DNA from: Escherichia coli
GTDB taxonomy: Bacteria; Pseudomonadota; Gammaproteobacteria; Enterobacterales; Enterobacteriaceae
Length of the DNA: 64,000 nt
Strand: one strand, 5' to 3'
NCBI RefSeq assembly: GCF_044647545.1
Contig: NZ_CP172818.1
In this document: positions 1 through 38,957 of the stretch, one piece after another
Layout of the letters: every line of letters begins with the position of its first letter
How positions within the stretch are numbered: the stretch's first letter is position 1
Translations under genes and position numbers: made by a program
Notes under the pieces: generated by a model
Database searches by the model: none
Told to the model about the DNA's origin: nothing
The model's input: the letters and a program-made list of their open reading frames with translations, nothing else

Positions 1-154
1 GGAGGATCATACTATGAATGCATTTTTGCGTTTTCTGGATGCAGATATCCAGAACAACCCGCAAAAAACTCGTCCATTCAACATTCAACAAGGAAAGAAA
101 CTTGTCGCTGGCATGGACGTCAACATTGATGATGAGATTGGCGACGACGAATAA
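1..154 (+). CDS. prlF: PrlF (SohA) antitoxin, 3' portion only (5' end lies outside the window)
   Basis: In-frame translation ends ...MNAFLRFLDADIQNNPQKTRPFNIQQGKKLVAGMDVNIDDEIGDDE, stop TAA at 152-154 overlapping the yhaV ATG by 1 nt; recognised as the PrlF C-terminus. Confidence 0.8.
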   Translation, partial: EDHTMNAFLRFLDADIQNNPQKTRPFNIQQGKKLVAGMDVNIDDEIGDDE

Positions 155-618
155 TGGATTTTCCACAAAGGGTTAATGGTTGGGCGCTATATGCTCATCC
201 CTGTTTTCAGGAAACCTACGACGCTTTAGTTGCCGAAGTCGAGACATTAAAGGGAAAAGATCCTGAAAATTATCAGAGAAAAGCCGCCACAAAGTTATTG
301 GCGGTAGTCCATAAAGTGATTGAGGAGCATATCACGGTCAATCCATCATCACCGGCATTCCGTCATGGCAAGTCGTTAGGCTCTGGGAAAAATAAAGACT
401 GGTCACGGGTAAAATTTGGTGCTGGTCGTTATCGTCTCTTCTTTCGTTACAGCGAAAAAGAGAAAGTCATCATTCTGGGATGGATGAACGATGAAAACAC
501 GCTGCGCACCTACGGTAAAAAAACAGATGCCTATACCGTATTCAGCAAAATGTTAAAAAGAGGACATCCTCCTGCCGACTGGGAAACCCTCACCCGAGAG
601 ACAGAAGAAACCCATTGA
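154..618 (+). CDS. yhaV: YhaV ribosome-dependent mRNA interferase toxin (PrlF-YhaV TA system)
   Basis: 154-aa ORF in track; sequence recognised as YhaV; immediately downstream of and overlapping prlF. Confidence 0.9.
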   Translation: MDFPQRVNGWALYAHPCFQETYDALVAEVETLKGKDPENYQRKAATKLLAVVHKVIEEHITVNPSSPAFRHGKSLGSGKNKDWSRVKFGAGRYRLFFRYSEKEKVIILGWMNDENTLRTYGKKTDAYTVFSKMLKRGHPPADWETLTRETEETH

Positions 619-672
619 TGGTATTCACAATGCCCGCCGAACGCATTCGTGTTGACCAGCGGGCACCCTTTC

Positions 673-1482
673 TCACTCCCCGACCAGAATCACTTCAACC
701 CCAGCCTTTCGCAGTCCTTCCAGACTATCCGCAGGAATGCCTTCATCAACAATGATCATGTCGATACGTTGAGTATCAATGATCTTATGTAAACTGGAAC
801 GGTTGAACTTACTGGAATCGGTGACCACGATGATCCGTTCCGCAACTTCGCACATCCGACGGTTTAAACGGGCTTCATCTTCATTATGCGTGCTGACGCC
901 GCGCTCCAGATCGATCGCATCTACACCAAGAAACAGCATATCGAAGTGGTAATTTTGCAGCGATTGCTCAGCCTGATCACCGTAAAAAGATTGCGACTGA
1001 CGGCGCAAATGCCCCCCGGTCATCAGCAGCTCAACGCCTTCCGCTTCCAGCAACGCATTAGCCACGTTCATACCGTTGGTCATCGCAATTACGTCGGTGT
1101 GCTTGCGCATCAGACGAGCAATCTCAAAAGTGGTGGTCCCGGAGTCGAGGATCACCCGATGACCAGGCTGAATCAACTCAACGGCAGCTTTCGCAACGCT
1201 GCGTTTCATTGCGGTGTTCAGCGCGCTTTTATCTTCCACTGATGGCTCGACTGACGGCGTCGTGCTATCGCAGATCAACGCGCCGCCATAGGCACGCACA
1301 GCGATCCCCTGCTTTTCCAGAAACGCCAGATCGTTGCGGATCGTCACAGTAGATACACCATACAACGCCGATAGATCATTAACTTGCACACTCCCTTGCT
1401 GGCGCAGGCGTTGAATGATCTGCTCTCGTCGCTCACTGGTGCCTGTCACTCGCTTCTCGCCTGAAGCGTCGGTATTACTCAT
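673..1482 (-). CDS. agaR: AgaR, DeoR-family transcriptional repressor of the aga cluster
   Basis: 269-aa ORF; N-terminal HTH plus DeoR sugar-binding domain; divergent from kbaZ. Confidence 0.92.
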
Positions 1483-1487
1483 AGTAA

Positions 1488-1700
1488 GTCCTTTCGTAAA
1501 ACTTTCGTTTCATTTCGTTTTGCCTATTAACGCCTTTCTATTAAGCAAATGCAAGCCCACCTTACCCATTGGCGCAAGCTACTCTCGTTTCAGTGGCTTT
1601 CATTATGTTTCTTTTGTGAATCAGATCAGAAAACTATTATCTTTCGTTTTATTTTTATCTCACCATGGCGCAGTATCAACTGAAACAAAACGAAAGATTA
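1488..1700. promoter_or_regulatory. agaR-kbaZ divergent promoter region with repeated TTTCRTTT/CTTTC motifs (putative AgaR operators)
   Basis: Multiple direct and inverted copies of ctttcgttt, tttcatttcgtttt, gaaacaaaacgaaag in a 250-bp AT-rich intergenic region; AgaR operators are known to be CTTTC-rich. Confidence 0.5.
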
Positions 1701-1730
1701 ATATCGCAGTAATCTGAACTGGAGAGGAAA

Positions 1731-3011
1731 GTGAAACATCTGACAGAAATGGTGAGACAGCACAAAGAGGGCAAAACAAATGGGATTTATGCCGTTTGTT
1801 CCGCACATCCGCTGGTGCTGGAAGCTGCAATCCGCTACGCCAGTGCAAACCAAACGCCGTTACTGATTGAAGCAACCTCCAATCAGGTGGACCAGTTCGG
1901 CGGTTATACCGGAATGACGCCCGCCGATTTTCGCGGCTTTGTTTGTCAGCTCGCCGACTCGTTGAATTTCCCACAGGATGCGTTGATTCTGGGTGGCGAC
2001 CATCTGGGGCCAAACCGCTGGCAAAACCTGCCTGCCGCTCAGGCAATGGCCAATGCCGATGATTTGATTAAAAGCTACGTGGCGGCAGGATTCAAAAAAA
2101 TTCACCTTGATTGCAGCATGTCCTGTCAGGACGATCCGATTCCCTTAACTGATGACATCGTGGCCGAACGCGCCGCTCGTCTGGCGAAAGTGGCGGAAGA
2201 AACCTGCCGTGAACATTTTGGCGCGGCCGATCTGGAGTATGTCATTGGTACCGAAGTACCGGTACCTGGCGGCGCGCATGAAACCTTAAGCGAGCTGGCG
2301 GTCACCACGCCGGATGCCGCCCGCGCCACACTGGAAGCCCATCGCCACGCCTTTGAAAAGCAGGGCCTGAATGCCATCTGGCCACGCATTATTGCCCTGG
2401 TGGTTCAACCCGGCGTCGAATTCGATCACACCAACGTTATTGATTATCAGCCAGCTAAAGCGACCGCATTAAGCCAGATGGTCGAAAACTACGAAACGCT
2501 GATTTTCGAAGCGCACTCTACCGATTACCAAACGCCGCAATCGTTGCGCCAGCTGGTGATTGACCACTTTGCCATTCTGAAAGTTGGCCCGGCGCTGACC
2601 TTCGCCCTGCGTGAAGCTCTGTTCTCTCTGGCGGCGATTGAAGAAGAACTGGTGCCAGCAAAAGCCTGTTCTGGTCTGCGTCAGGTGCTGGAAAACGTGA
2701 TGCTCGACCGCCCGGAATACTGGCAAAGCCACTACCACGGTGACGGCAACGCGCGTCGTCTGGCGCGTGGTTATAGCTACTCGGATCGCGTGCGCTATTA
2801 CTGGCCGGACAGCCAGATTGATGACGCTTTCGCTCATCTGGTTCGTAATCTGGCGGATTCACCAATTCCGCTACCGCTCATCAGCCAGTATTTGCCGCTG
2901 CAATACGTGAAAGTTCGCTCCGGCGAGCTGCAGCCAACACCACGGGAACTCATTATCAACCATATTCAGGACATCCTGGCGCAGTACCACACAGCCTGTG
3001 AAGGCCAATAA
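1731..3011 (+). CDS. kbaZ: KbaZ (AgaZ) tagatose-bisphosphate aldolase non-catalytic subunit
   Basis: 426-aa ORF beginning GTG at 1731; recognised sequence. Confidence 0.9.
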
Positions 3012-3033
3012 GCAAAACAAAGAGGAACACGCT

Positions 3034-3507
3034 ATGCCAAATATTGTTTTAAGCCGGATTGATGAGCGTTTGATTCACGGTCAGGTCGGCGTTCAGTGGG
3101 TCGGATTTGCGGGGGCAAATCTGGTGCTGGTAGCCAACGATGAGGTTGCCGAAGATCCGGTACAACAAAACCTGATGGAAATGGTACTGGCAGAAGGGAT
3201 CGCCGTACGTTTCTGGACGCTGCAAAAAGTCATCGACAACATTCATCGCGCCGCCGATCGACAGAAAATCCTGCTGGTTTGTAAAACACCTGCCGATTTC
3301 CTGACGCTGGTGAAAGGTGGCGTTCCGGTGAATCGCATTAACGTTGGCAATATGCACTACGCCAATGGCAAGCAACAAATCGCCAAAACGGTTTCTGTGG
3401 ATGCGGGTGATATCGCAGCATTTAACGACCTGAAAGCCGCTGGGGTGGAATGCTTCGTTCAGGGCGTCCCGACAGAGCCTGCTGTGGACCTCTTTAAATT
3501 ACTTTGA
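3034..3507 (+). CDS. agaV: AgaV, PTS N-acetylgalactosamine-specific EIIB component
   Basis: ATG at 3034 (MPNIVLSRIDERLIHGQVG...), 157 aa; the track ORF begins 12 codons upstream. Confidence 0.9.
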   Translation: MPNIVLSRIDERLIHGQVGVQWVGFAGANLVLVANDEVAEDPVQQNLMEMVLAEGIAVRFWTLQKVIDNIHRAADRQKILLVCKTPADFLTLVKGGVPVNRINVGNMHYANGKQQIAKTVSVDAGDIAAFNDLKAAGVECFVQGVPTEPAVDLFKLL

Positions 3508-3517
3508 GGGATTCATC

Positions 3518-3919
3518 ATGGAAATCAGTCTGTTGCAGGCATTCGCGTTGGGCATTATCGCCTTTATCGCTGGCCTGGATATGTTTAACGGCCTAACCCA
3601 TATGCACCGCCCGGTGGTCCTCGGCCCGTTGGTCGGGCTGGTACTTGGCGATCTGCATACCGGTATTTTAACCGGCGGTACGCTGGAACTGGTGTGGATG
3701 GGGCTGGCCCCGCTGGCGGGCGCACAGCCGCCTAACGTGATTATCGGTACTATCGTCGGCACGGCGTTTGCCATTACTACTGGCGTGAAACCCGATGTCG
3801 CGGTCGGTGTCGCCGTACCTTTCGCTGTCGCAGTACAGATGGGGATTACCTTCCTGTTCTCGGTGATGTCCGGCGTGATGTCCCGCGGCGACCTGGCAAC
3901 AAACCCGTGCCGCGTTTGA
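3518..3919 (+). pseudogene. agaW: agaW' fragment of PTS EIIC component (N-terminal part only)
   Basis: 133-aa ORF with IIC-like transmembrane N-terminus that terminates prematurely; matches the truncated agaW of K-12, where agaE/agaF are missing. Confidence 0.8.
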
Positions 3920-3938
3920 CGCTGGTGCCGACGGCCTG

Positions 3939-4442
3939 GTGCATTGCTATAACGGGATGACAGGTTTACATCACCGCGAACCGGGAATGGTTGGCGCGGG
4001 ATTAACGGACAAGCGCGCCTGGCTGGAACTGATAGCCGATGGTCATCATGTACATCCGGCGGCGATGTCGCTGTGTTGTTGCTGTGCGAAAGAGAGAATC
4101 GTGCTGATCACCGACGCGATGCAGGCAGCCGGGATGCCGGATGGTCGCTATACGTTATGTGGTGAAGAAGTGCAGATGCACGATGGCGTTGTCCGTACCG
4201 CGTCCGGTGGGCTGGCGGGCAGTACGCTGTCTGTCGATGCGGCAGTGCGCAACATGGTCGAGTTGACGGGCGTAACGCCTGCGGAAGCCATCCATATGGC
4301 ATCGCTGCATCCGGCGCGTATGCTGGGTGTTGATGGTGTTCTGGGATCGCTTAAACCGGGCAAACGCGCCAGCGTCGTTGCGCTGGATAGCGGGCTGCAT
4401 GTGCAACAAATCTGGATTCAGGGTCAATTAGCTTCGTTTTGA
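3939..4442 (+). pseudogene. agaA: agaA' fragment of N-acetylgalactosamine-6-phosphate deacetylase (C-terminal part only)
   Basis: 167-aa ORF corresponding to the C-terminal region of a NagA-like amidohydrolase; no N-terminal metal-binding region. Confidence 0.8.
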
Positions 4443-4518
4443 TGGTTTGCTCCTTTATTGGGCCTTCACTTCCCCCGTAAGGCCTTTCTTTTTCTTTCTT
4501 TTTGATCTGTGCAGCGGT

Positions 4519-4575
4519 GTCGGATGCGACGCTGACGCGTCTTCTTCGACCTACGGTACGCCGCATCCGGCAATC
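4519..4575. repeat. REP-like palindromic element
   Basis: gtcggatgcgacgctgacgcgtcttcttcgacctacggtacgccgcatccggca; reverse complement begins GCCGGATGCGGCGTA, typical of REP. Confidence 0.5.
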
Positions 4576-4599
4576 GGTGAACATAGCGACGTTATCACG

Positions 4600-4755
4600 C
4601 AATCCTTTAATCTTCCCTTGTCTTTTCTTTCAATGATCACAAATTTCGTTTTATTTCTTTTTTCTCCATTGAACTTTCAGTTTCTTTTCTATAGATTTTA
4701 ATCAACGAAAGACATCACCAAGTGAAATGAAACGAAAGGTAAGCGAAAGCGACAA
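4600..4755. promoter_or_regulatory. agaS promoter region with CTTTC/TTTCRTTT repeats (putative AgaR operators)
   Basis: Clustered motifs cttttctttc, tttcgttttatttc, tttcagtttcttttc, gaaatgaaacgaaag directly upstream of agaS. Confidence 0.5.
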
Positions 4756-4792
4756 CGCCCGACGCCAAGTTCATCAGACTAAGGATTGAGTT

Positions 4793-5947
4793 ATGCCAGA
4801 AAATTACACCCCTGCTGCCGCTGCAACCGGTACATGGACTGAAGAAGAGATCCGCCATCAGCCTCGCGCATGGATCCGTTCACTCACCAACATCGACGCG
4901 CTACGTTCCGCGCTCAATAACTTCCTTGAACCGTTACTGCGCAAAGAGAATCTGCGGGTAATCCTGACCGGAGCCGGAACCTCGGCATTTATCGGTGATA
5001 TCATCGCGCCGTGGCTCGCCAGCCATACCGGTAAAAACTTCAGCGCCGTACCGACCACCGATCTGGTCACTAATCCGATGGACTACCTGAATCCAGCTCA
5101 TCCGCTACTGTTGATCTCCTTCGGTCGATCCGGCAACAGCCCGGAAAGCGTCGCCGCCGTGGAACTGGCGAATCAGTTTGTACCGGAATGCTATCACCTG
5201 CCGATCACCTGCAACGAAGCGGGCGCTCTTTACCAAAACGCGATCAACAGCGACAACGCGTTTGCCCTGCTGATGCCCGCAGAAACGCACGATCGCGGCT
5301 TTGCGATGACCAGCAGCATTACCACCATGATGGCCAGCTGCCTCGCGGTTTTCGCACCTGAGACGATCAACAGCCAAACCTTCCGCGATGTGGCAGATCG
5401 TTGCCAGGAAATCCTGACCTCACTGGGCGATTTCAGCGAAGGTGTGTTTGGTTACGCACCGTGGAAACGGATCGTTTATCTCGGCAGCGGTGGCTTACAG
5501 GGCGCAGCACGCGAGTCGGCGCTGAAAGTACTGGAACTGACAGCGGGTAAACTGGCGGCCTTTTATGATTCCCCGACCGGATTCCGTCATGGCCCGAAAT
5601 CGCTGGTCGATAACGAAACGCTGGTGGTGGTGTTTGTCTCCAGCCACCCTTACACCCGTCAGTATGATCTTGATCTGCTGGCAGAACTCCGCCGCGATAA
5701 CCAGGCATTGCGCGTAATCGCCATCGCCGCGGAAAGCAACGACGTTATTACCGCCGGTCCACATATCATCCTGCCGCCGTCCCGTCACTTTATCGACGTT
5801 GAGCAGGCATTTTGCTTCCTGATGTACGCCCAGACGTTTGCACTGATGCAGTCGCTGCACATGGGTAATACGCCGGATACCCCATCAGCCAGTGGCACCG
5901 TTAACCGCGTGGTGCAAGGCGTAATCATTCATCCGTGGCAGGCATAA
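4793..5947 (+). CDS. agaS: AgaS, SIS-domain sugar isomerase/deaminase (putative galactosamine-6-phosphate deaminase)
   Basis: 384-aa ORF; recognised sequence. Confidence 0.92.
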   Translation: MPENYTPAAAATGTWTEEEIRHQPRAWIRSLTNIDALRSALNNFLEPLLRKENLRVILTGAGTSAFIGDIIAPWLASHTGKNFSAVPTTDLVTNPMDYLNPAHPLLLISFGRSGNSPESVAAVELANQFVPECYHLPITCNEAGALYQNAINSDNAFALLMPAETHDRGFAMTSSITTMMASCLAVFAPETINSQTFRDVADRCQEILTSLGDFSEGVFGYAPWKRIVYLGSGGLQGAARESALKVLELTAGKLAAFYDSPTGFRHGPKSLVDNETLVVVFVSSHPYTRQYDLDLLAELRRDNQALRVIAIAAESNDVITAGPHIILPPSRHFIDVEQAFCFLMYAQTFALMQSLHMGNTPDTPSASGTVNRVVQGVIIHPWQA

Positions 5948-6820
<873 letters not shown>

Positions 6821-6986
6821 TCATTAGTTTTTTATGATTTATCCCAATGTACTTCCCGATTAATATCGGGGAGTGCCTTAATGGAAAAGGAGATGACTAA
6901 ACCTTAATAAATACATAAGTACAATATCGCAACAATAATATATTTAAAAAAATTATATTATTCAACTTTATGGTGAGGATTACACA

Positions 6987-7463
6987 ATGAGCAGTCCAAA
7001 TATTCTCTTAACCCGTATTGATAACCGTCTGGTTCACGGTCAGGTTGGCGTGACCTGGACATCCACCATCGGTGCGAATCTGTTGGTAGTCGTGGATGAT
7101 GTTGTCGCTAACGATGATATTCAACAGAAATTAATGGGTATTACCGCAGAAACCTACGGCTTTGGCATTCGTTTCTTTACTATCGAAAAAACCATTAACG
7201 TCATCGGCAAAGCTGCACCGCATCAGAAGATCTTCCTGATTTGCCGTACGCCACAAACGGTACGTAAATTGGTAGAAGGTGGTATTGACCTGAAAGATGT
7301 CAACGTCGGCAATATGCATTTCTCGGAAGGGAAAAAGCAAATCAGCAGTAAAGTTTATGTCGATGACCAGGATCTCACGGACTTACATTTTATTAAACAA
7401 CGTGGCGTGAATGTTTTCATTCAGGACGTCCCTGGCGATCAAAAAGAACAAATCCCTGACTAA
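6987..7463 (+). CDS. agaB: AgaB, PTS galactosamine-specific EIIB component
   Basis: 158-aa ORF; paralogous to AgaV (RIDNRLVHGQVG motif). Confidence 0.92.
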   Translation: MSSPNILLTRIDNRLVHGQVGVTWTSTIGANLLVVVDDVVANDDIQQKLMGITAETYGFGIRFFTIEKTINVIGKAAPHQKIFLICRTPQTVRKLVEGGIDLKDVNVGNMHFSEGKKQISSKVYVDDQDLTDLHFIKQRGVNVFIQDVPGDQKEQIPD

Positions 7464-7501
7464 ATCTAAAATCGCCTTAATATTGGTTTGAGGTAATAAA
7501 A

Positions 7502-8305
7502 ATGCATGAAATAACCCTACTCCAGGGATTATCCCTGGCGGCGTTAGTTTTCTTTCTGGGGATTGATTTTTGGCTGGAAGCCTTATTTTTATTCCGCCCG
7601 ATAATCGTTTGTACCCTTACAGGTGCTATTCTCGGTGATATTCAGACTGGCTTAATTACCGGTGGCCTGACAGAGTTGGCTTTCGCCGGATTAACCCCTG
7701 CAGGTGGTGTTCAGCCGCCCAACCCTATTATGGCGGGTCTGATGACCACTGTCATTGCATGGTCTACGGGCGTTGATGCCAAAACGGCAATTGGTCTTGG
7801 CCTGCCGTTTAGTTTGTTAATGCAGTACGTCATTCTGTTCTTCTATTCCGCTTTCTCATTATTTATGACCAAAGCCGATAAATGCGCAAAAGAGGCGGAT
7901 ACGGCAGCATTTTCCCGACTTAACTGGACAACGATGCTCATCGTCGCTTCAGCGTATGCGGTGATTGCTTTCCTCTGTACTTACCTGGCACAAGGGGCGA
8001 TGCAGGCGCTGGTGAAAGCGATGCCCGCTTGGCTGACCCACGGCTTTGAAGTGGCTGGCGGTATTCTGCCTGCCGTTGGTTTTGGCTTGCTGCTGCGCGT
8101 GATGTTCAAAGCGCAATATATCCCTTACCTGATCGCCGGTTTCCTGTTCGTTTGCTACATCCAGGTCAGCAACCTGTTGCCGGTTGCCGTGCTGGGTGCA
8201 GGCTTTGCGGTGTATGAGTTTTTCAATGCGAAATCCCGGCAGCAAGCGCAACCGCAGTCCGTTGTCAGTAATAATGAAGAAGAGGACTACAGCAATGGGA
8301 TCTGA
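7502..8305 (+). CDS. agaC: AgaC, PTS galactosamine-specific EIIC component
   Basis: 267-aa hydrophobic ORF. Confidence 0.92.
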   Translation: MHEITLLQGLSLAALVFFLGIDFWLEALFLFRPIIVCTLTGAILGDIQTGLITGGLTELAFAGLTPAGGVQPPNPIMAGLMTTVIAWSTGVDAKTAIGLGLPFSLLMQYVILFFYSAFSLFMTKADKCAKEADTAAFSRLNWTTMLIVASAYAVIAFLCTYLAQGAMQALVKAMPAWLTHGFEVAGGILPAVGFGLLLRVMFKAQYIPYLIAGFLFVCYIQVSNLLPVAVLGAGFAVYEFFNAKSRQQAQPQSVVSNNEEEDYSNGI

Positions 8306-9086
8306 AATCAGTAAAAAAGATATCACCCGTCTGGGCTTTCGTTCGTCACTGCTGCAAGCGAGCTTTAACTACGAAAGGATGCAGGCGGGCGGTTTTACCT
8401 GGGCGATGTTGCCGATCCTGAAAAAGATTTATAAGGACGACAAACCGGGCCTAAGCGCGGCGATGAAAGATAACCTCGAATTTATTAATACCCACCCGAA
8501 TCTGGTCGGATTCCTGATGGGGTTATTAATTTCGATGGAAGAAAAAGGAGAAAACCGCGACACCATTAAAGGCCTCAAAGTGGCACTGTTTGGCCCAATC
8601 GCCGGGATTGGCGATGCGATTTTCTGGTTTACCTTATTGCCGATTATGGCGGGAATTTGCTCATCATTTGCCAGCCAGGGAAACTTGCTGGGGCCGATTC
8701 TATTTTTCGCCGTTTACCTGCTTATCTTCTTCCTGCGCGTCGGCTGGACCCACGTCGGTTATTCAGTCGGCGTGAAGGCTATTGATAAAGTGCGAGAGAA
8801 CTCGCAGATGATTGCTCGTTCGGCAACCATCCTCGGGATCACGGTAATCGGCGGGCTGATCGCTTCGTATGTGCATATTAACGTGGTGACATCGTTTGCC
8901 ATCGACAGTACCCACAGCGTCGCACTGCAGCAGGATTTCTTCGATAAAGTCTTCCCGAACATTTTACCGATGGCCTACACCCTGCTGATGTATTACTTCC
9001 TGCGGGTGAAAAAAGCGCATCCGGTGCTGTTAATCGGCGTGACTTTTGTGCTCTCTATTGTTTGTTCCGCATTCGGCATTTTGTAA
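8295..9086 (+). CDS. agaD: AgaD, PTS galactosamine-specific EIID component
   Basis: ATG at 8295 (MGSEISKKDITRLGF...), 263 aa, overlapping the agaC 3' end by 11 nt; the track ORF begins 37 codons upstream. Confidence 0.9.
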   Translation: MGSEISKKDITRLGFRSSLLQASFNYERMQAGGFTWAMLPILKKIYKDDKPGLSAAMKDNLEFINTHPNLVGFLMGLLISMEEKGENRDTIKGLKVALFGPIAGIGDAIFWFTLLPIMAGICSSFASQGNLLGPILFFAVYLLIFFLRVGWTHVGYSVGVKAIDKVRENSQMIARSATILGITVIGGLIASYVHINVVTSFAIDSTHSVALQQDFFDKVFPNILPMAYTLLMYYFLRVKKAHPVLLIGVTFVLSIVCSAFGIL

Positions 9087-9953
9087 ATGGAACGAGGCAC
9101 TGCGTCTGGCGGTGCCTCTTTACTTAAGGAATTTCATCCTGTGCAAACCCTTCAACAAGTTGAAAACTATACGGCGTTAAGTGAACGTGCCAGCGAATAT
9201 TTATTGGCCGTGATCCGTAGTAAACCGGATGCCGTGATTTGCCTGGCGACCGGAGCCACGCCATTACTGACGTATCATTATCTGGTAGAAAAAATCCACC
9301 AGCAGCAGGTTGATGTCAGCCAGCTCACCTTCGTGAAGCTCGACGAATGGGTGGATCTGCCATTAACAATGCCTGGCACCTGCGAAACTTTCCTACAACA
9401 GCATATCGTGCAGCCGCTGGGGCTGCGTGAAGACCAGCTCATCAGCTTTCGCTCTGAAGAGATAAATGAGACAGAGTGCGAACGGGTAACGAACCTGATT
9501 GCGCGCAAAGGCGGTCTGGATTTATGCGTTCTCGGATTGGGGAAAAACGGTCATCTTGGGCTGAACGAACCGGGAGAAAGCCTGCAACCGGCCTGCCATA
9601 TCAGTCAACTTGATGCCAGAACACAGCAACATGAGATGTTAAAAACCGCGGGCCGTCCCGTGACTCGTGGGATCACCTTAGGCCTGAAGGATATTCTCAA
9701 TACCCGCGAAGTTTTGCTACTGGTGACTGGCGAAGGAAAGCAGGATGCGACAGAACGTTTTCTCACGGCTAAAGTCTCTACCGCTATCCCGGCTTCTTGG
9801 GGCAACGCCCACACTCTCCCCCTGCTGCTCCAGTGCATACTTATACAGCGCATTTTTCTTCACGCCGTGAATTTCTGCTGCCAGCGCCGCCGCTTTTTTC
9901 AGTGGCAGTTCTGCCTGCAACAGCGCCAGCGTGCGCAGGGCATCGGCGGGTAA
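9087..9953 (+). CDS. agaI: AgaI-like galactosamine-6-phosphate isomerase/deaminase (NagB family) with altered 3' end: after about codon 238 the ORF is translation of antisense rsmI
   Basis: NagB-family ORF, ATG at 9087. Reference AgaI is recalled as 251 aa; here the frame stays open to 9953 (288 aa) and the tail ...[36 protein letters not shown]... is not NagB-like. Confidence 0.7.
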
Positions 9954-15481: not shown

Positions 15482-15553
15482 AGCATTCCCCAGGAATAAG
15501 ATATGATAATTGAGCGCGTGAATATTACGCTCACTATCATTTCTTGGGAATAA

Positions 15554-16199
<646 letters not shown>

Positions 16200-16226
16200 T
16201 TACAGAATTGTCTGCCTTGCGCTCCC

Positions 16227-16303
<77 letters not shown>

Positions 16304-16304
16304 T

Positions 16305-16814
<510 letters not shown>

Positions 16815-16835
<21 letters not shown>

Positions 16836-17258
16836 GTTACGTAGCCAGATCATTTTTTTACCAAAGCCCAGCGTGTTGTCGGTGAATTTGATTTCATCAA
16901 GCCGGATTTCCCACACCGGTGCCGACAGCATTCTGGCAACCGGAAAGCGACGATTGTACGCCTGGCGCGCAAGGTCGCTTTCCTCACCTTCAAGCCTGCG
17001 GATCTCGCCTTTAAATTGCACGCCGCGAATTAACGCTACCGTTTTCGGCTGACCGTTTACCGTTCCGGCAACTGCCGCCTGCGGCCCACTCATCTGCGCG
17101 TGGCGCGTTTTTTCTTCCGTCAAAATGTAGAAGGCGACTTTCTGTGTATCAAAAAGATAAAAGGCATTAGCGCACCAGAGTTCCCCTTCCTGCTGTACAC
17201 ACCAGGTGACAACATGTTGTTTTTCCAGCCAACGGCTGATGGCGGTGAGTGTTTCCAT
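16815..17258 (-). CDS. yhbP: YhbP, UPF0306 family protein
   Basis: 147-aa ORF; convergent with yhbO, 3' ends overlap by 21 nt. Confidence 0.88.
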
Positions 17259-17308
17259 TGCTGTTCTCTTTTATACTGTGGGCCTGACCTTAACATGCGA
17301 CGCAGACG

Positions 17309-17611
17309 ATGACACCCTGGTTTCTTTACTTGATCCGTACCGCCGACAATAAGCTTTATACCGGGATCACCACAGATGTCGAACGCCGCTATCAGCAGCA
17401 CCAAAGCGGCAAAGGGGCGAAAGCACTGCGCGGGAAAGGAGAACTAACGCTGGCGTTTTCCGCGCCAGTAGGCGATCGTTCGCTGGCACTACGGGCGGAA
17501 TATCGCGTTAAGCAACTGACCAAACGGCAAAAAGAGCGTCTGGTAGCGGAAGGCACAGGGTTTGCAGAACTGTTGAGCAGCCTGCAAACCCCAAAGATTA
17601 AAAGCGATTGA
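17309..17611 (+). CDS. yhbQ: YhbQ, GIY-YIG domain protein
   Basis: 100-aa ORF. Confidence 0.88.
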
Positions 17612-18101
17612 AGTGCTCGTGATACTCAACCAGACCAGTTACACCGTTCAGCGCGTCATCCGCTAAACGATGTACCTGGAAGGCACTTTCAGTGCCCGGC
17701 CAGCGGCAACGCAGATCGTGATGTGCCGCCAGTTCAAAGCCGAAACGGCTGTACAGCGCCGGATCGCCCAGCGTCACCACTGCGGCATAGCCGAACTCAT
17801 TAAGCGAATCGAGTCCTTCATAGACCAGTTGGCGTGCCAGCCCCTGTCCACGGTATTTTTCATCTACCGCCAGCGGTGCCATGCCGACCCATTGCAGGTC
17901 TTCGCCCTGCACATCAACCGGACTAAATGCCACATAGCCAATGACCTGACCTTCGTCATCTGTCGCCACCAGCCCCAGCGTCAGAAAGCCATCTTCACGC
18001 AGATCGTGAACCAGCTTCGCTTCCGCATCACTTTCGAATGAACGACGCAGCAGGGCATCAATACCCGGCGCATCAATGGGAATTTCTACTCGAATTAGCA
18101 T
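17598..18101 (-). CDS. yhbS: YhbS, GNAT-family N-acetyltransferase
   Basis: 167-aa ORF. Confidence 0.88.
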
Positions 18102-18619
18102 GGTTCACCTACCGATGTCTGTTTGGTTTCAGGCGCGGTTTTCATTCCCGCCTCAACAAAATCCGCCAGTTGCAGCAGCATCATGCGTAAGGCTTTCGGC
18201 ATTTGCTCCAGTTCAATGGCGTCCATCAGGTTTTTCACATACAGCCCCAGCTCCGTATCGCCTTCAATTACCAGCCGACGCTGGAAGAAGAGCGTATCCG
18301 GATCTTGTTTACGCGCCGCAATCATCAGCAGATCGCTGGCGTCGGCACTAAAACTCACATCAGCTTGCGCGTTCTGGCTAACGACCAGTTTGCCATTCAC
18401 CACCGAGGTAAACCATTGCAGGTCAATATCACGCACATGAATACTTAACCAGCGGCCTTCAAGAAACTCCAGCTCGCCATCATCCAACGCCTGGCGGAAT
18501 TGCCAGCTTAAGACCTGCTCAAGAACCTGGCGTTTTAGCGCAAATGGCGTCAGTTTTACCGGTACACTCAACAGAGATGGCCCCAAATGCACAATACGGG
18601 AACGCAGTTTATCCAACAC
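18095..18619 (-). CDS. ubiT: UbiT (YhbT), SCP2-domain protein of O2-independent ubiquinone biosynthesis
   Basis: 174 aa from GTG at 18619; the track ORF begins 8 codons upstream. Confidence 0.85.
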   Translation of the reverse strand: MLDKLRSRIVHLGPSLLSVPVKLTPFALKRQVLEQVLSWQFRQALDDGELEFLEGRWLSIHVRDIDLQWFTSVVNGKLVVSQNAQADVSFSADASDLLMIAARKQDPDTLFFQRRLVIEGDTELGLYVKNLMDAIELEQMPKALRMMLLQLADFVEAGMKTAPETKQTSVGEPC

Positions 18620-18827
18620 GAGTTTTACTCCCTGTTTCAACAATCATCCTATTTTGCCATATCAGAAAAATAACATAGCGGTATAAATCAACAATTCCAT
18701 ATGAAATTGCTGCTACCACCAATACAACTTTAACTGCCTTAAATCAAAAATTGTCGCAGCAAGGTTAACTAAAATCCCAGTTCGTTAACATTTTTGCGCT
18801 TTGATAGCGCAACCTTCAGGAAAAATT

Positions 18828-19823
18828 ATGGAGCTGCTCTGCCCTGCCGGAAATCTCCCGGCGCTTAAGGCGGCCATCGAAAACGGCGCAGATGCTGTTT
18901 ATATCGGGCTAAAAGATGATACCAATGCCCGTCACTTCGCCGGCCTTAACTTTACCGAGAAAAAATTGCAGGAAGCGGTGAGTTTTGTCCATCAACATCG
19001 CCGCAAACTTCACATCGCGATTAACACTTTTGCGCATCCGGACGGTTACGCCCGCTGGCAGCGCGCCGTGGATATGGCGGCGCAGCTGGGTGCCGACGCG
19101 CTGATCCTCGCCGACCTCGCCATGCTGGAGTACGCCGCCGAGCGTTACCCGCATATTGAGCGTCATGTGTCAGTGCAGGCTTCGGCGACCAATGAAGAGG
19201 CGATTAACTTTTATCATCGCCATTTTGACGTTGCCCGCGTGGTGCTGCCGCGCGTGTTGTCGATTCATCAGGTGAAACAACTGGCACGGGTCACACCTAT
19301 CCCGCTGGAAGTGTTTGCTTTCGGCAGCCTGTGCATTATGTCGGAAGGCCGTTGCTATCTGTCGTCGTATCTGACGGGTGAGTCGCCCAACACTGTGGGT
19401 GCGTGTTCTCCGGCCCGTTTCGTGCGCTGGCAACAAACGCCGCAGGGGCTGGAATCCCGCCTGAACGAAGTGCTGATCGACCGTTATCAGGACGGCGAAA
19501 ACGCAGGTTATCCGACGCTGTGTAAAGGGCGTTATCTGGTGGACGGCGAGCGCTATCACGCGCTGGAAGAACCCACCAGTCTCAATACCCTGGAACTGCT
19601 GCCGGAGTTAATGGCAGCGAATATTGCTTCGGTGAAAATTGAAGGCCGCCAGCGTAGCCCGGCGTATGTCAGCCAGGTGGCGAAAGTCTGGCGTCAGGCT
19701 ATCGACCGTTGTAAGGCCGATCCGCAAAACTTCGTACCGCAAAGCGCGTGGATGGAGACGCTCGGGTCGATGTCCGAAGGCACGCAGACCACCCTTGGCG
19801 CGTATCACCGTAAATGGCAGTGA
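18828..19823 (+). CDS. ubiU: UbiU (YhbU), U32 peptidase-family protein of anaerobic ubiquinone biosynthesis
   Basis: ATG at 18828 (MELLCPAGNLPALKAAIENGADAVYIGL), 331 aa. Confidence 0.9.
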   Translation: MELLCPAGNLPALKAAIENGADAVYIGLKDDTNARHFAGLNFTEKKLQEAVSFVHQHRRKLHIAINTFAHPDGYARWQRAVDMAAQLGADALILADLAMLEYAAERYPHIERHVSVQASATNEEAINFYHRHFDVARVVLPRVLSIHQVKQLARVTPIPLEVFAFGSLCIMSEGRCYLSSYLTGESPNTVGACSPARFVRWQQTPQGLESRLNEVLIDRYQDGENAGYPTLCKGRYLVDGERYHALEEPTSLNTLELLPELMAANIASVKIEGRQRSPAYVSQVAKVWRQAIDRCKADPQNFVPQSAWMETLGSMSEGTQTTLGAYHRKWQ

Positions 19824-35965: not shown

Positions 35966-37324
<1,359 letters not shown>

Positions 37325-37331
37325 TTCGACA

Positions 37332-38957
37332 TCAACCCTGCCCTTCAGGGGTGGGGTTACCTTGCTTATCCTCAGTAAACTCCTTTCTTAGCATCACAAA
37401 ATCGAAAACATCATGGTTTGCATCTACAACCCGTGAGTCTCCTTTATAGTGTGCAATCACTTCCTCAAGCGTTTGCGGCTGTTCCGGCTTTGTTACCCCC
37501 ATCCACGCATTAATAAGGTAATTATTGTACGCAGTGGAAAAGATATCGTTTTCCGTTGTGCGATCCACGCCATCCCCAAGAACGGGGCTATACCAGATAA
37601 ACATCGGGACATGATATGCCTGCTGGCTGGCCTCCCTGCCTCCATGAAAATAGACGTTCTTCTTCGTAGGGTCGCGTTCCAGGCCGTGGTCGGCAAAATA
37701 CATGACCGAGGCGCGGCGATCTTTTAATAATTCAAAAACCTGACCTAGCAAACTATCTGTGTAATGAATGGAGTTGTCATAGCAGGCATCCTGATCGTCC
37801 TGCGGTTGAAACACGGCGCTGGATTGCGGATAGGCGCTACAAGCCGGTTCATGGCTTCCATTTAAATGAAGAACAATCAGTTTCTTTTGCTGCGTCTTTT
37901 GCTGTAACGCTTGCGATAAATGCGGCAACAACAATTCATCAAATCCTCTGACATAGACTGTTTCCATGGCGCGCATGGCGATACTGGTAACTGCTGTACC
38001 ATTCTGCCGAAAAGCGGATTGCGAGCTTAGCCAGAAAGTCTGAAATCCTGCTTGATTAGCCATATTAATAATGTTGTCCGGGTAATTATGAATGTCATGA
38101 CTCAAAACAGAATCAGCAGTTAAAGAAAGGGGAACCGACAGCGCAGTGTAAGGTGCACCGCTTATTGCTTGATTAAACAGTTTGATCTGTTTTCTTTGTG
38201 CTTCGACTTGCGGTGTCGTAGAGCGTGTGTATCCATACAAAGACATATTGTCGACACGTACAGACTCCCCCACAATCAACACGTAGGTATCAATACCTGT
38301 ATCCCTGACTGATAATTGAAAATACGGCACCGTGTTTGCAATTGAGAGTAATCTTTGATGCTCTTTCGCTGCTAAAGCAAAATAATTGAGATTGAAAAAC
38401 GGTGTATAGGTAGCAAATCGCGACGCTAGTATATATGGACTGAACGCTTTTTTATTTTTTGCATCTTTATAAGCAAATTGACAAGCGGAAAATAAACTGC
38501 CCGAAATGACAATCAGCAATAATATTCCTGTCACTTTTTTTGTCGGCAAGGAAACATCATATTTTATTATTACTGCCAAAAAAAGAAGGGATAAAAAAGC
38601 AAAAGCACATAGATAAGGGATATACATCCCCAGCATTTTCACAACTTCATCCGGATCACTCTGCAGCACACTAATCGCAAATCCATCATTGAAAGTTGTA
38701 CCAAAGGTACACCATGAATAGAGGCTAATACTCATGTCTGCCGCAGTCAGTAACACAAATGGTGCGGCAACAAGCAGGCGAAGCGGAAGGGATGATATAC
38801 GTTTAACAACCAGGATGGTCAGAACGAAAAACAGCAATCGCTGAACCATATGCGCTCCGGAAGAGGCGACTAAGTTCGTAATACCAAAAACAATAACACA
38901 AAGATACAACAACCAATGAGATTTAAAACTTCTAACAAATTTGTTGAATACTGTCAT
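37332..38957 (-). CDS. yhbX: YhbX, putative phosphoethanolamine transferase-like inner-membrane protein
   Basis: ATG at 38957, about 541 aa, sulfatase-like domain; the track ORF begins 11 codons upstream. Confidence 0.85.
   Translation of the reverse strand: MTVFNKFVRSFKSHWLLYLCVIVFGITNLVASSGAHMVQRLLFFVLTILVVKRISSLPLRLLVAAPFVLLTAADMSISLYSWCTFGTTFNDGFAISVLQSDPDEVVKMLGMYIPYLCAFAFLSLLFLAVIIKYDVSLPTKKVTGILLLIVISGSLFSACQFAYKDAKNKKAFSPYILASRFATYTPFFNLNYFALAAKEHQRLLSIANTVPYFQLSVRDTGIDTYVLIVGESVRVDNMSLYGYTRSTTPQVEAQRKQIKLFNQAISGAPYTALSVPLSLTADSVLSHDIHNYPDNIINMANQAGFQTFWLSSQSAFRQNGTAVTSIAMRAMETVYVRGFDELLLPHLSQALQQKTQQKKLIVLHLNGSHEPACSAYPQSSAVFQPQDDQDACYDNSIHYTDSLLGQVFELLKDRRASVMYFADHGLERDPTKKNVYFHGGREASQQAYHVPMFIWYSPVLGDGVDRTTENDIFSTAYNNYLINAWMGVTKPEQPQTLEEVIAHYKGDSRVVDANHDVFDFVMLRKEFTEDKQGNPTPEGQG

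Follow-up and report, generated by a model that had tools for sequence, protein, structure and literature searches.

Overlaps between the 3' ends of convergent genes are a known feature of prokaryotic genomes. For E. coli 58 have been reported (Lillo and Krakauer 2007, PMC2174442); among convergent overlaps of at least 5 nt the phase (123:132) is the commonest, at 49%, and mutation of a stop codon is the favoured origin (PMC2174442). Convergent neighbours with overlapping transcripts have also been collected as excludons, and both yhbQ-yhbS and yhbO-yhbP stand among the 165 convergent excludons of MG1655 derived from RNA-seq with ExcludonFinder (PMC12288877, Table 1). Two further systems bear on the locus described here, namely the protective stem-loops, lacking U-tracts, known from E. 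coli transcripts whose termination depends on Rho (Dar and Sorek 2018, PMC6061677) and the coupled start/stop overlaps of same-strand operon genes.

We have analysed the yhbQ/yhbS pair in a 64,000-nt stretch of E. coli DNA (the window; contig NZ_CP172818.1). The pair shares with the reported convergent overlaps its real opposite-strand genes, its short length and its phase, which is the commonest one, and its pattern fits an origin by loss or absence of a stop followed by run-on. Nothing essential sets it apart from that class, and it is notable for an unusually constant register and for an adjoining second overlapping pair. The likeness to convergent excludons lies in convergent neighbours with overlapping transcripts, the pair itself being in the list; excludons are defined by mutually exclusive expression, whereas yhbQ/yhbS is likened to them here by overlap alone. 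A hairpin next to the overlap resembles the Dar and Sorek stem-loops in being stable, just 3' of a coding sequence and free of a U-rich stretch, and differs from them in that its stem is set within the codons of the convergent gene and that the C/G ratio downstream of it is only mildly above 1. Coupled start/stop overlaps have their counterpart in the ATGCTAA junction of ubiT and yhbS, which belong to one transcription unit, although this likeness concerns the other end of yhbS and not its overlap with yhbQ. The yhbQ/yhbS overlap is already known from public annotation and the published excludon list, and as such it matters little, being correctly read, publicly annotated and of a common type. 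What is added here is small and local: an explanation of its fixed register by a codon lock, and the hairpin embedded beside it. We consider the pair to be a genuine, evolutionarily fixed and ordinary tail-to-tail overlap of two real genes whose register is set by codon constraint in YhbS, a reading to which we give a probability of roughly 0.85.

The 3' ends of yhbQ and yhbS have 14 nt in common

The features of the locus are collected in Table 1. The earlier note had described yhbQ and yhbS as convergent genes with 14 nt in common, and on this the list of open reading frames, the sequence and RefSeq agree. The plus strand of the overlap reads TTAAAAGCGATTGA and encodes the YhbQ terminus ..(I)KSD-stop; the minus strand reads TCAATCGCTTTTAA and encodes the YhbS terminus ..(F)NRF-stop. 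In the raw sequence yhbQ ends AAG ATT AAA AGC GAT TGA and yhbS ends CAC TTC AAT CGC TTT TAA. The locus has two opposite-strand reading frames, each with its stop inside the partner, which are real genes and are conserved.

Table 1. Coordinates of the genes, overlaps and hairpin within the window
Feature	Position	Strand	Description	Source
yhbQ CDS	17309..17611	+	100 aa, GIY-YIG nuclease family, stop TGA 17609-17611	ORF list, RefSeq, Pfam
yhbS (= hqbA) CDS	17598..18101	-	167 aa, GNAT acetyltransferase, stop TAA 17600-17598	ORF list, RefSeq, Pfam, PDB
yhbQ/yhbS convergent CDS overlap	17598..17611	both	14 nt, phase (123:132)	sequence
yhbS Phe-Asn codons TTC AAT	17607..17612	-	TCA at bases 2-4 is complementary to the yhbQ stop TGA on the other strand	sequence
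hairpin	17558..17591	stated for - (yhbS sense)	10-bp inverted repeat GGGTTTGCAG / CTGCAAACCC, inner 3-bp extension	
ubiT stop/yhbS start overlap	18095-18101	-	ATGCTAA, 7 nt	RefSeq, sequence
ubiT CDS	18095..18619	-	first gene of the ubiT-yhbS transcription unit	RefSeq; NCBIfam UbiT equivalog, E=3e-45
yhbO/yhbP convergent overlap	16815..16835	yhbO 16317-16835 +, yhbP 16815-17258 -	21 nt	RefSeq

Both proteins are anchored by domain matches. YhbQ residues 4-76 match Pfam GIY-YIG (E=8.5e-16) and YhbS residues 19-123 match Pfam GNAT; the stop codons are unambiguous because these matches fix the two reading frames, from which the stops follow mechanically. An annotation artefact, in which a stop or frame had been mis-assigned and the genes did not truly overlap, would draw on the YhbQ tail, which past residue 76 is not covered by the Pfam match and is variable, with indels between genera. 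Several observations nevertheless leave this idea with an almost negligible probability. The alignment of YhbQ with its Bacillus homologue BH0048 (1zg2) extends to residue 92, and the indels in the yhbQ tail are in-frame in 77/82 loci, so that the same stop is reached. For YhbS, the construct in PDB entry 4rs2 comprises E. coli residues 2-167, is identical in sequence and holds the C-terminus through the last residue, F167. RefSeq gives the same coordinates in several strains, including NZ_CP033850.1, an E. coli record that is 100% identical over 16200-18700. Mis-assigned stop codons, the weak point foreseen in the earlier note, are therefore excluded, since the domain matches fix the frames and the stops recur across genera.

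Pfam GIY-YIG is the only match of YhbQ, no NCBIfam model matching it at E up to 0.001. RefSeq nonetheless carries the product name 'DNA damage response exodeoxyribonuclease YhbQ', despite the lack of an NCBIfam match. Under its new name HqbA, YhbS has been described as a GNAT protein that binds Hfq and increases in level under anaerobic conditions (PMC10710024).

Constancy of the overlap

We compared the locus with the 80 closest of 232 relatives, taking one genome per species, which together with the window and locus L001 gave 82 loci. These span about 30 genera, all within the Enterobacteriaceae, among them Escherichia, Citrobacter, Salmonella, Enterobacter, Klebsiella, Kluyvera, Kosakonia, Leclercia, Atlantibacter, Trabulsiella and Franconibacter, and the homologous proteins listed are all at least 79% identical. 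Both genes are present in 82/82 loci, and in every one of them they converge and overlap, a non-overlapping locus being seen in none. The overlap is exactly 14 nt long in 77 of the 82; among the other five its length is 4 nt (three Citrobacter loci), 22 nt (one Buttiauxella MAG) and 25 nt (Franconibacter). The yhbQ/yhbS overlap is real and conserved, and it is not rare.

Within E. coli, several strains match a 2.5-kb query at 100% identity, and 5424/5426 complete genomes contain it; yhbQ and yhbS likewise both occur in 5424/5426. K-12 J53 and O157:H7 share the 14-nt geometry. Between this strain and K-12 there are 0/14 differences in the overlap, 6/61 in the part of the tail that belongs to yhbQ only, 5/228 in the yhbQ domain and 12/490 in yhbS outside the overlap, the last leaving the YhbS amino acids unchanged.

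The E. coli polymorphism at this locus has a hot spot in the yhbQ tail (17537-17597), which differs from K-12 by 9.8% against about 2% in the flanking coding sequence, and in yhbS at 17634-17646. In the latter segment five differences lie exactly 3 nt apart and leave the YhbS protein unchanged. Identity to this strain over 17530-17660 is only 90-95% in about 78% of the 5424 genomes. The YhbS accession is identical in four strains, and the YhbQ accession is different in each of the three that annotate yhbQ. One strain, E. coli MSB1_9I (NZ_LR890508.1, L085, at about locus position 545-600), carries an IS1 element in yhbQ, 5 nt from the hairpin described below; yhbQ is destroyed, and the hairpin and yhbS are intact. 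The gene is therefore dispensable in at least one strain.

A codon lock on the register

Three bases of yhbS give, as their reverse complement, the yhbQ stop: positions 2-3 of a Phe codon (TTY) and the first base of the codon that follows (AAY, Asn). A TTY codon before an A-initial codon in yhbS always gives TGA or TAA on the opposite strand, and Phe followed by an A-initial codon occupies the stop-making site in all 81 loci examined, as F-N in 79 and as F-S (AGC) in 2. On the yhbS strand the sequence of the overlap across the loci is T[C/T]AATCG[N]TT[N]T[A/G]A. The YhbS C-terminus, Y[HS][DE]HFNRF, is conserved; the final YhbQ residues vary, as [ILV][KR][SNTHD][DG]. In the (123:132) phase the third positions of yhbS codons stand, by their coordinates, opposite the second positions of yhbQ codons, so that synonymous changes in yhbS alter YhbQ residues.

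These observations lead to a simple explanation. The YhbQ frame, having no stop before the end of yhbS, runs into yhbS as far as the first stop in phase; purifying selection on YhbS holds that stop where it is and so fixes the overlap at 14 nt; and the last four residues of YhbQ follow passively, changing with the synonymous changes in yhbS. On this explanation the register is fixed because the yhbQ stop lies within the conserved Phe-Asn codons of the yhbS HFNRF motif. The loci in which the frame has shifted behave in the same spirit, each frameshifted yhbQ tail ending at the next stop of its new phase. A 1-nt insertion in the three Citrobacter loci produces the shared 4-nt stop TTAA, and frameshifted tails in two distant genera, Buttiauxella and Franconibacter, give the overlaps of 22-25 nt. 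This is as expected from a passive run-on model.

Passivity would apply to the end of the protein. Further upstream in the YhbQ tail an F-[EA]-x-L-L-x-x-L motif is conserved, and part of the tail is therefore also under selection at the protein level. Taken as a whole, yhbQ/yhbS is a clean worked example of how a convergent overlap can be kept frozen at one length by the Phe-Asn codons of the partner gene.

The arrangement also has a practical side, in that edits or tags placed at the 3' end of yhbQ or yhbS alter the other gene, the hairpin or both. Keio-type deletions likely raise the same concern. The published primers for yhbS-SPA tagging lie precisely at this place (PMC10470549).

Antisense transcripts

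As the two genes leave no intergenic space, each of the mRNAs must, we infer, end within the opposing gene, and the yhbQ and yhbS mRNAs consequently overlap in antisense. A transcript overlap of yhbQ and yhbS has been published from RNA-seq (PMC12288877). On the yhbS side, ubiT and yhbS were found by RT-PCR to form a single, Fnr-dependent transcription unit; induction of YhbS-SPA is lost in an fnr mutant, and ubiquinone synthesis does not need YhbS (PMC10470549).

Such an arrangement invites the idea that the overlap itself has been selected as a convergent excludon, in which Fnr-induced anaerobic transcription of ubiT-yhbS would repress yhbQ and vice versa, with collision of RNA polymerases or cleavage of double-stranded RNA making expression mutually exclusive. 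The pair is indeed part of the MG1655 excludome, in at least 50% of 58 transcriptomes (PMC12288877), its convergence and overlap are conserved throughout the 82 loci, and both the Fnr-dependence of the ubiT-yhbS unit and the anaerobic rise of HqbA (PMC10470549, PMC10710024) would suit such a switch. However, any overlap of coding sequences counts as a transcript overlap by definition, and the excludon listing therefore does not show regulation. Anticorrelated expression or a phenotype is not reported for yhbQ/yhbS in the literature examined, and the codon constraint explains the exact register without regulation. The neighbouring yhbO/yhbP overlap, moreover, varies freely, from 21 to 15 nt and to a 3-nt gap, and in MSB1_9I yhbQ is interrupted with yhbS intact. 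We regard selection of the overlap as an excludon as quite unlikely, and keep to a register set by the YhbS codons.

A stem-loop in the yhbQ tail

The hairpin begins 6 nt 3' of the yhbS stop and lies inside yhbQ codons 84-95, its arms (17558-17567 and 17582-17591) forming a perfect 10-bp repeat. Its minimum free energy is -22.5 kcal/mol in the yhbS sense (z=-4.9) and -19.8 kcal/mol in the yhbQ sense (z=-4.2), which places it in the top 0.09% of 40-nt windows within the 64 kb. Eleven clusters in the 64 kb are at least as stable; judged from their positions, four of these correspond to intergenic terminators or REP elements, and another six fall within other coding sequences. The asymmetry between strands that arises from G-U pairing points to the yhbS sense in Escherichia alone, with a mixed picture in the other lineages.

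The stable, GC-containing stem stands next to both 3' ends, and 23/116 genes in E. coli convergent overlaps have been reported with predicted intrinsic terminators (PMC2174442), so that a Rho-independent terminator, possibly bidirectional and common to both genes, has to be weighed. The hairpin has the GC-rich stem-loop of an intrinsic terminator but lacks the run of U residues 3' of the stem, and this holds on either strand: the yhbS-sense flank reads UGUGCCUU, with UGUGCCUUCC following the stem, and the yhbQ-sense flank reads CCAAAGAU, with CCAAAGAUUAAAAG following the stem. A consensus terminator scan called no site in the overlap or in the hairpin at 17558-17591. On the yhbQ mRNA, furthermore, the structure would lie 17 nt upstream of the stop codon, in translated sequence. 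A terminator at this place is thus very unlikely. Elsewhere in yhbQ a minus-strand terminator-like site at 17468-17450 was considered and set aside, being weakened in K-12 by an A49V change at 17454. A REP element was likewise rejected, as the 131-nt region occurs at a single place per genome (median 1) in 5424 genomes and gave no Rfam match; an Rfam scan of 15500-19500 at E up to 1 found no match at the overlap or the hairpin.

Among relatives whose tails are of equal length the register of the stem is kept with different sequences, GGGTTTG/CAAACCC in Escherichia becoming GGGCTTG/CAAGCCC in Citrobacter. In the latter a change of YhbQ F to L (TTT to CTT) is matched by a change of T to A (ACC to GCC), a compensatory pair in which both changes are non-synonymous. 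Atlantibacter has the stem GGCGCTGG/CCAGCGCC in the same register, and Buttiauxella and Franconibacter have stems of about 16 bp, of unrelated sequence, at the same place. The structure is weak or absent in Enterobacter, where a 12-nt deletion removed one arm, and in Klebsiella, Kluyvera, Kosakonia, Pseudocitrobacter and others, and is therefore not universally required.

Covariation was counted for 12 named stem pairs on an alignment of the tails, with 500 shuffles and with controls in which the pairs were slid along. Paired cells made up 70.6% of the total against 64.8% in the shuffles, a value that 0/500 of them reached and that the slid controls, at most 55%, did not approach. Cells changed on both sides numbered 28 against 13 in shuffles (0/500), and the covariation score was 0.183 against 0.106 (0/500), with shuffles that ignore phylogeny; both of these values also exceeded those of the slid controls. 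Stricter measures did not rise above the shuffles, the number of pairs changed on both sides being reached in 100/500 and that of further pair types in 221/500. Independent compensatory events are few, about five by count, and the structure is absent in several genera.

A separate measure came from recoding the 15 codons of the tail that belong to yhbQ only, with 500 synonymous recodings per locus at local codon usage. In the yhbS sense, recodings reached the native stability in a fraction of 0-0.002 for Escherichia, 0.002-0.012 for Citrobacter, 0 to 0.03 for Atlantibacter and L052, and 0.006-0.02 for Leclercia and L047; for Buttiauxella and Franconibacter the fraction was 0. Enterobacter showed no consistent signal, and Kosakonia, Pseudescherichia and Superficieibacter showed none. 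The hairpin is thus much more stable than its synonymous recodings in about half of the lineages.

These results bear on whether the hairpin could be functionless, a by-product of the self-complementary codons for the YhbQ C-terminal helix F-E/A-x-L-L-x-x-L-Q-T (TTTGAR.../...YTNCAAA). The FExLLxxL motif is conserved even in loci without a hairpin, the hairpin has been lost in several genera, and other genes of the window contain hairpins of equal stability, all of which such an origin would accommodate. It fits less well with the recodings, of which only 0-3% match the native stability in the yhbS sense in most of the hairpin-bearing lineages tested, and with Atlantibacter, where the peptide differs (IALADLFPDLPAP) and yet the stem keeps its register; the compensatory changes in Citrobacter, being non-synonymous, also speak against it. 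An accident of the helix codons is possible but, in our view, on the unlikely side. The comparative data suggest instead a hairpin that is selected in many lineages and dispensable in others.

As to what is selected, our tentative proposal, which we put a little short of even odds, is that the hairpin is a protective or 3'-end-defining stem-loop of the ubiT-yhbS transcript. It would act on the ubiT-yhbS mRNA, after the yhbS stop, following factor-dependent termination. In its anatomy the hairpin resembles the Rho-associated class introduced above, being a stable stem-loop without a U-tract just downstream of a coding sequence. The C/G ratio downstream of it is 1.05-1.35, only mildly above 1, which is a weak and not a diagnostic signal of Rho loading. 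No entry for yhbQ, yhbS, yhbT or ubiT was found in the supplementary data of Adams 2021 (eLife) or Yan 2018 (Nat Commun), where mapped 3' ends were looked for. We regard the hairpin as a candidate 3' stem-loop of the ubiT-hqbA mRNA, encoded within the codons of the convergent gene.

A more ambitious reading joins the two features, so that the hairpin and the fixed 3'-3' overlap would together form a conserved bidirectional control point linking the expression of ubiT-hqbA and yhbQ. Anaerobic, Fnr-driven transcription of ubiT-hqbA would enter yhbQ in antisense and silence the YhbQ nuclease, and the stem-loop, preserved through the codons used in yhbQ, would determine how stable the mRNA of the Hfq modulator HqbA is. 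We see only a slim chance of this. If true, it would link a DNA-damage nuclease to the respiratory state and to Hfq activity.

Neighbouring overlaps

The earlier note had also pointed to a second convergent overlap adjoining the first, that of yhbO and yhbP, and to an overlap of the yhbS start with the ubiT stop on the same strand; both stand, the former with the 21 nt given by RefSeq and the latter, of 7 nt, in the sequence as well as in RefSeq. YhbP matches an NCBIfam equivalog. Across the loci the yhbO/yhbP overlap is 21 nt in 36, 15 nt in 13, replaced by a 3-nt gap in 3 and otherwise in 3, with 27/82 not assessable, and it is far less constant than that of yhbQ/yhbS. The 7-nt overlap of ubiT and yhbS is kept in 80/82 loci, and its ATGCTAA sequence is compatible with translational coupling within the ubiT-yhbS unit.

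Two of the 9 convergent pairs within the window overlap, a count made with coordinates that are valid from about 9.8 kb on, where the window is collinear with the reference record. By a rough estimate, a few instances per genome of two adjacent overlapping convergent pairs would be expected by chance.

Two terminator-like sites lie near the yhbO/yhbP overlap. On the plus strand, 17095-17108 reads GCGCG-TGG-CGCGT followed by TTTTTTCTT; it is inside yhbP, 260 nt beyond the yhbO stop, and is a candidate for a yhbO terminator carried by the convergent gene. The second, on the minus strand at 16777-16761, is inside yhbO just beyond the yhbP stop. In the divergent spacer between ubiT and ubiU, the sole match of the Rfam scan, to CRISPR-DR22 at 18651-18687, falls below threshold (21.9 bits, where the gathering score is 50; E=0.32) and is probably due to chance.

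Farther along the window argG and yhbX converge at about 37320-37335 with a spacer of only 7 nt, and this pair is also in the published excludon list. At the other end, positions 1-9800, which hold the aga gene cluster, are not collinear with NZ_CP033850.1, the record that is 100% identical over 16200-18700. That record carries an IS1 element that splits a PTS IIB gene, and its BLAST blocks are displaced or rearranged.
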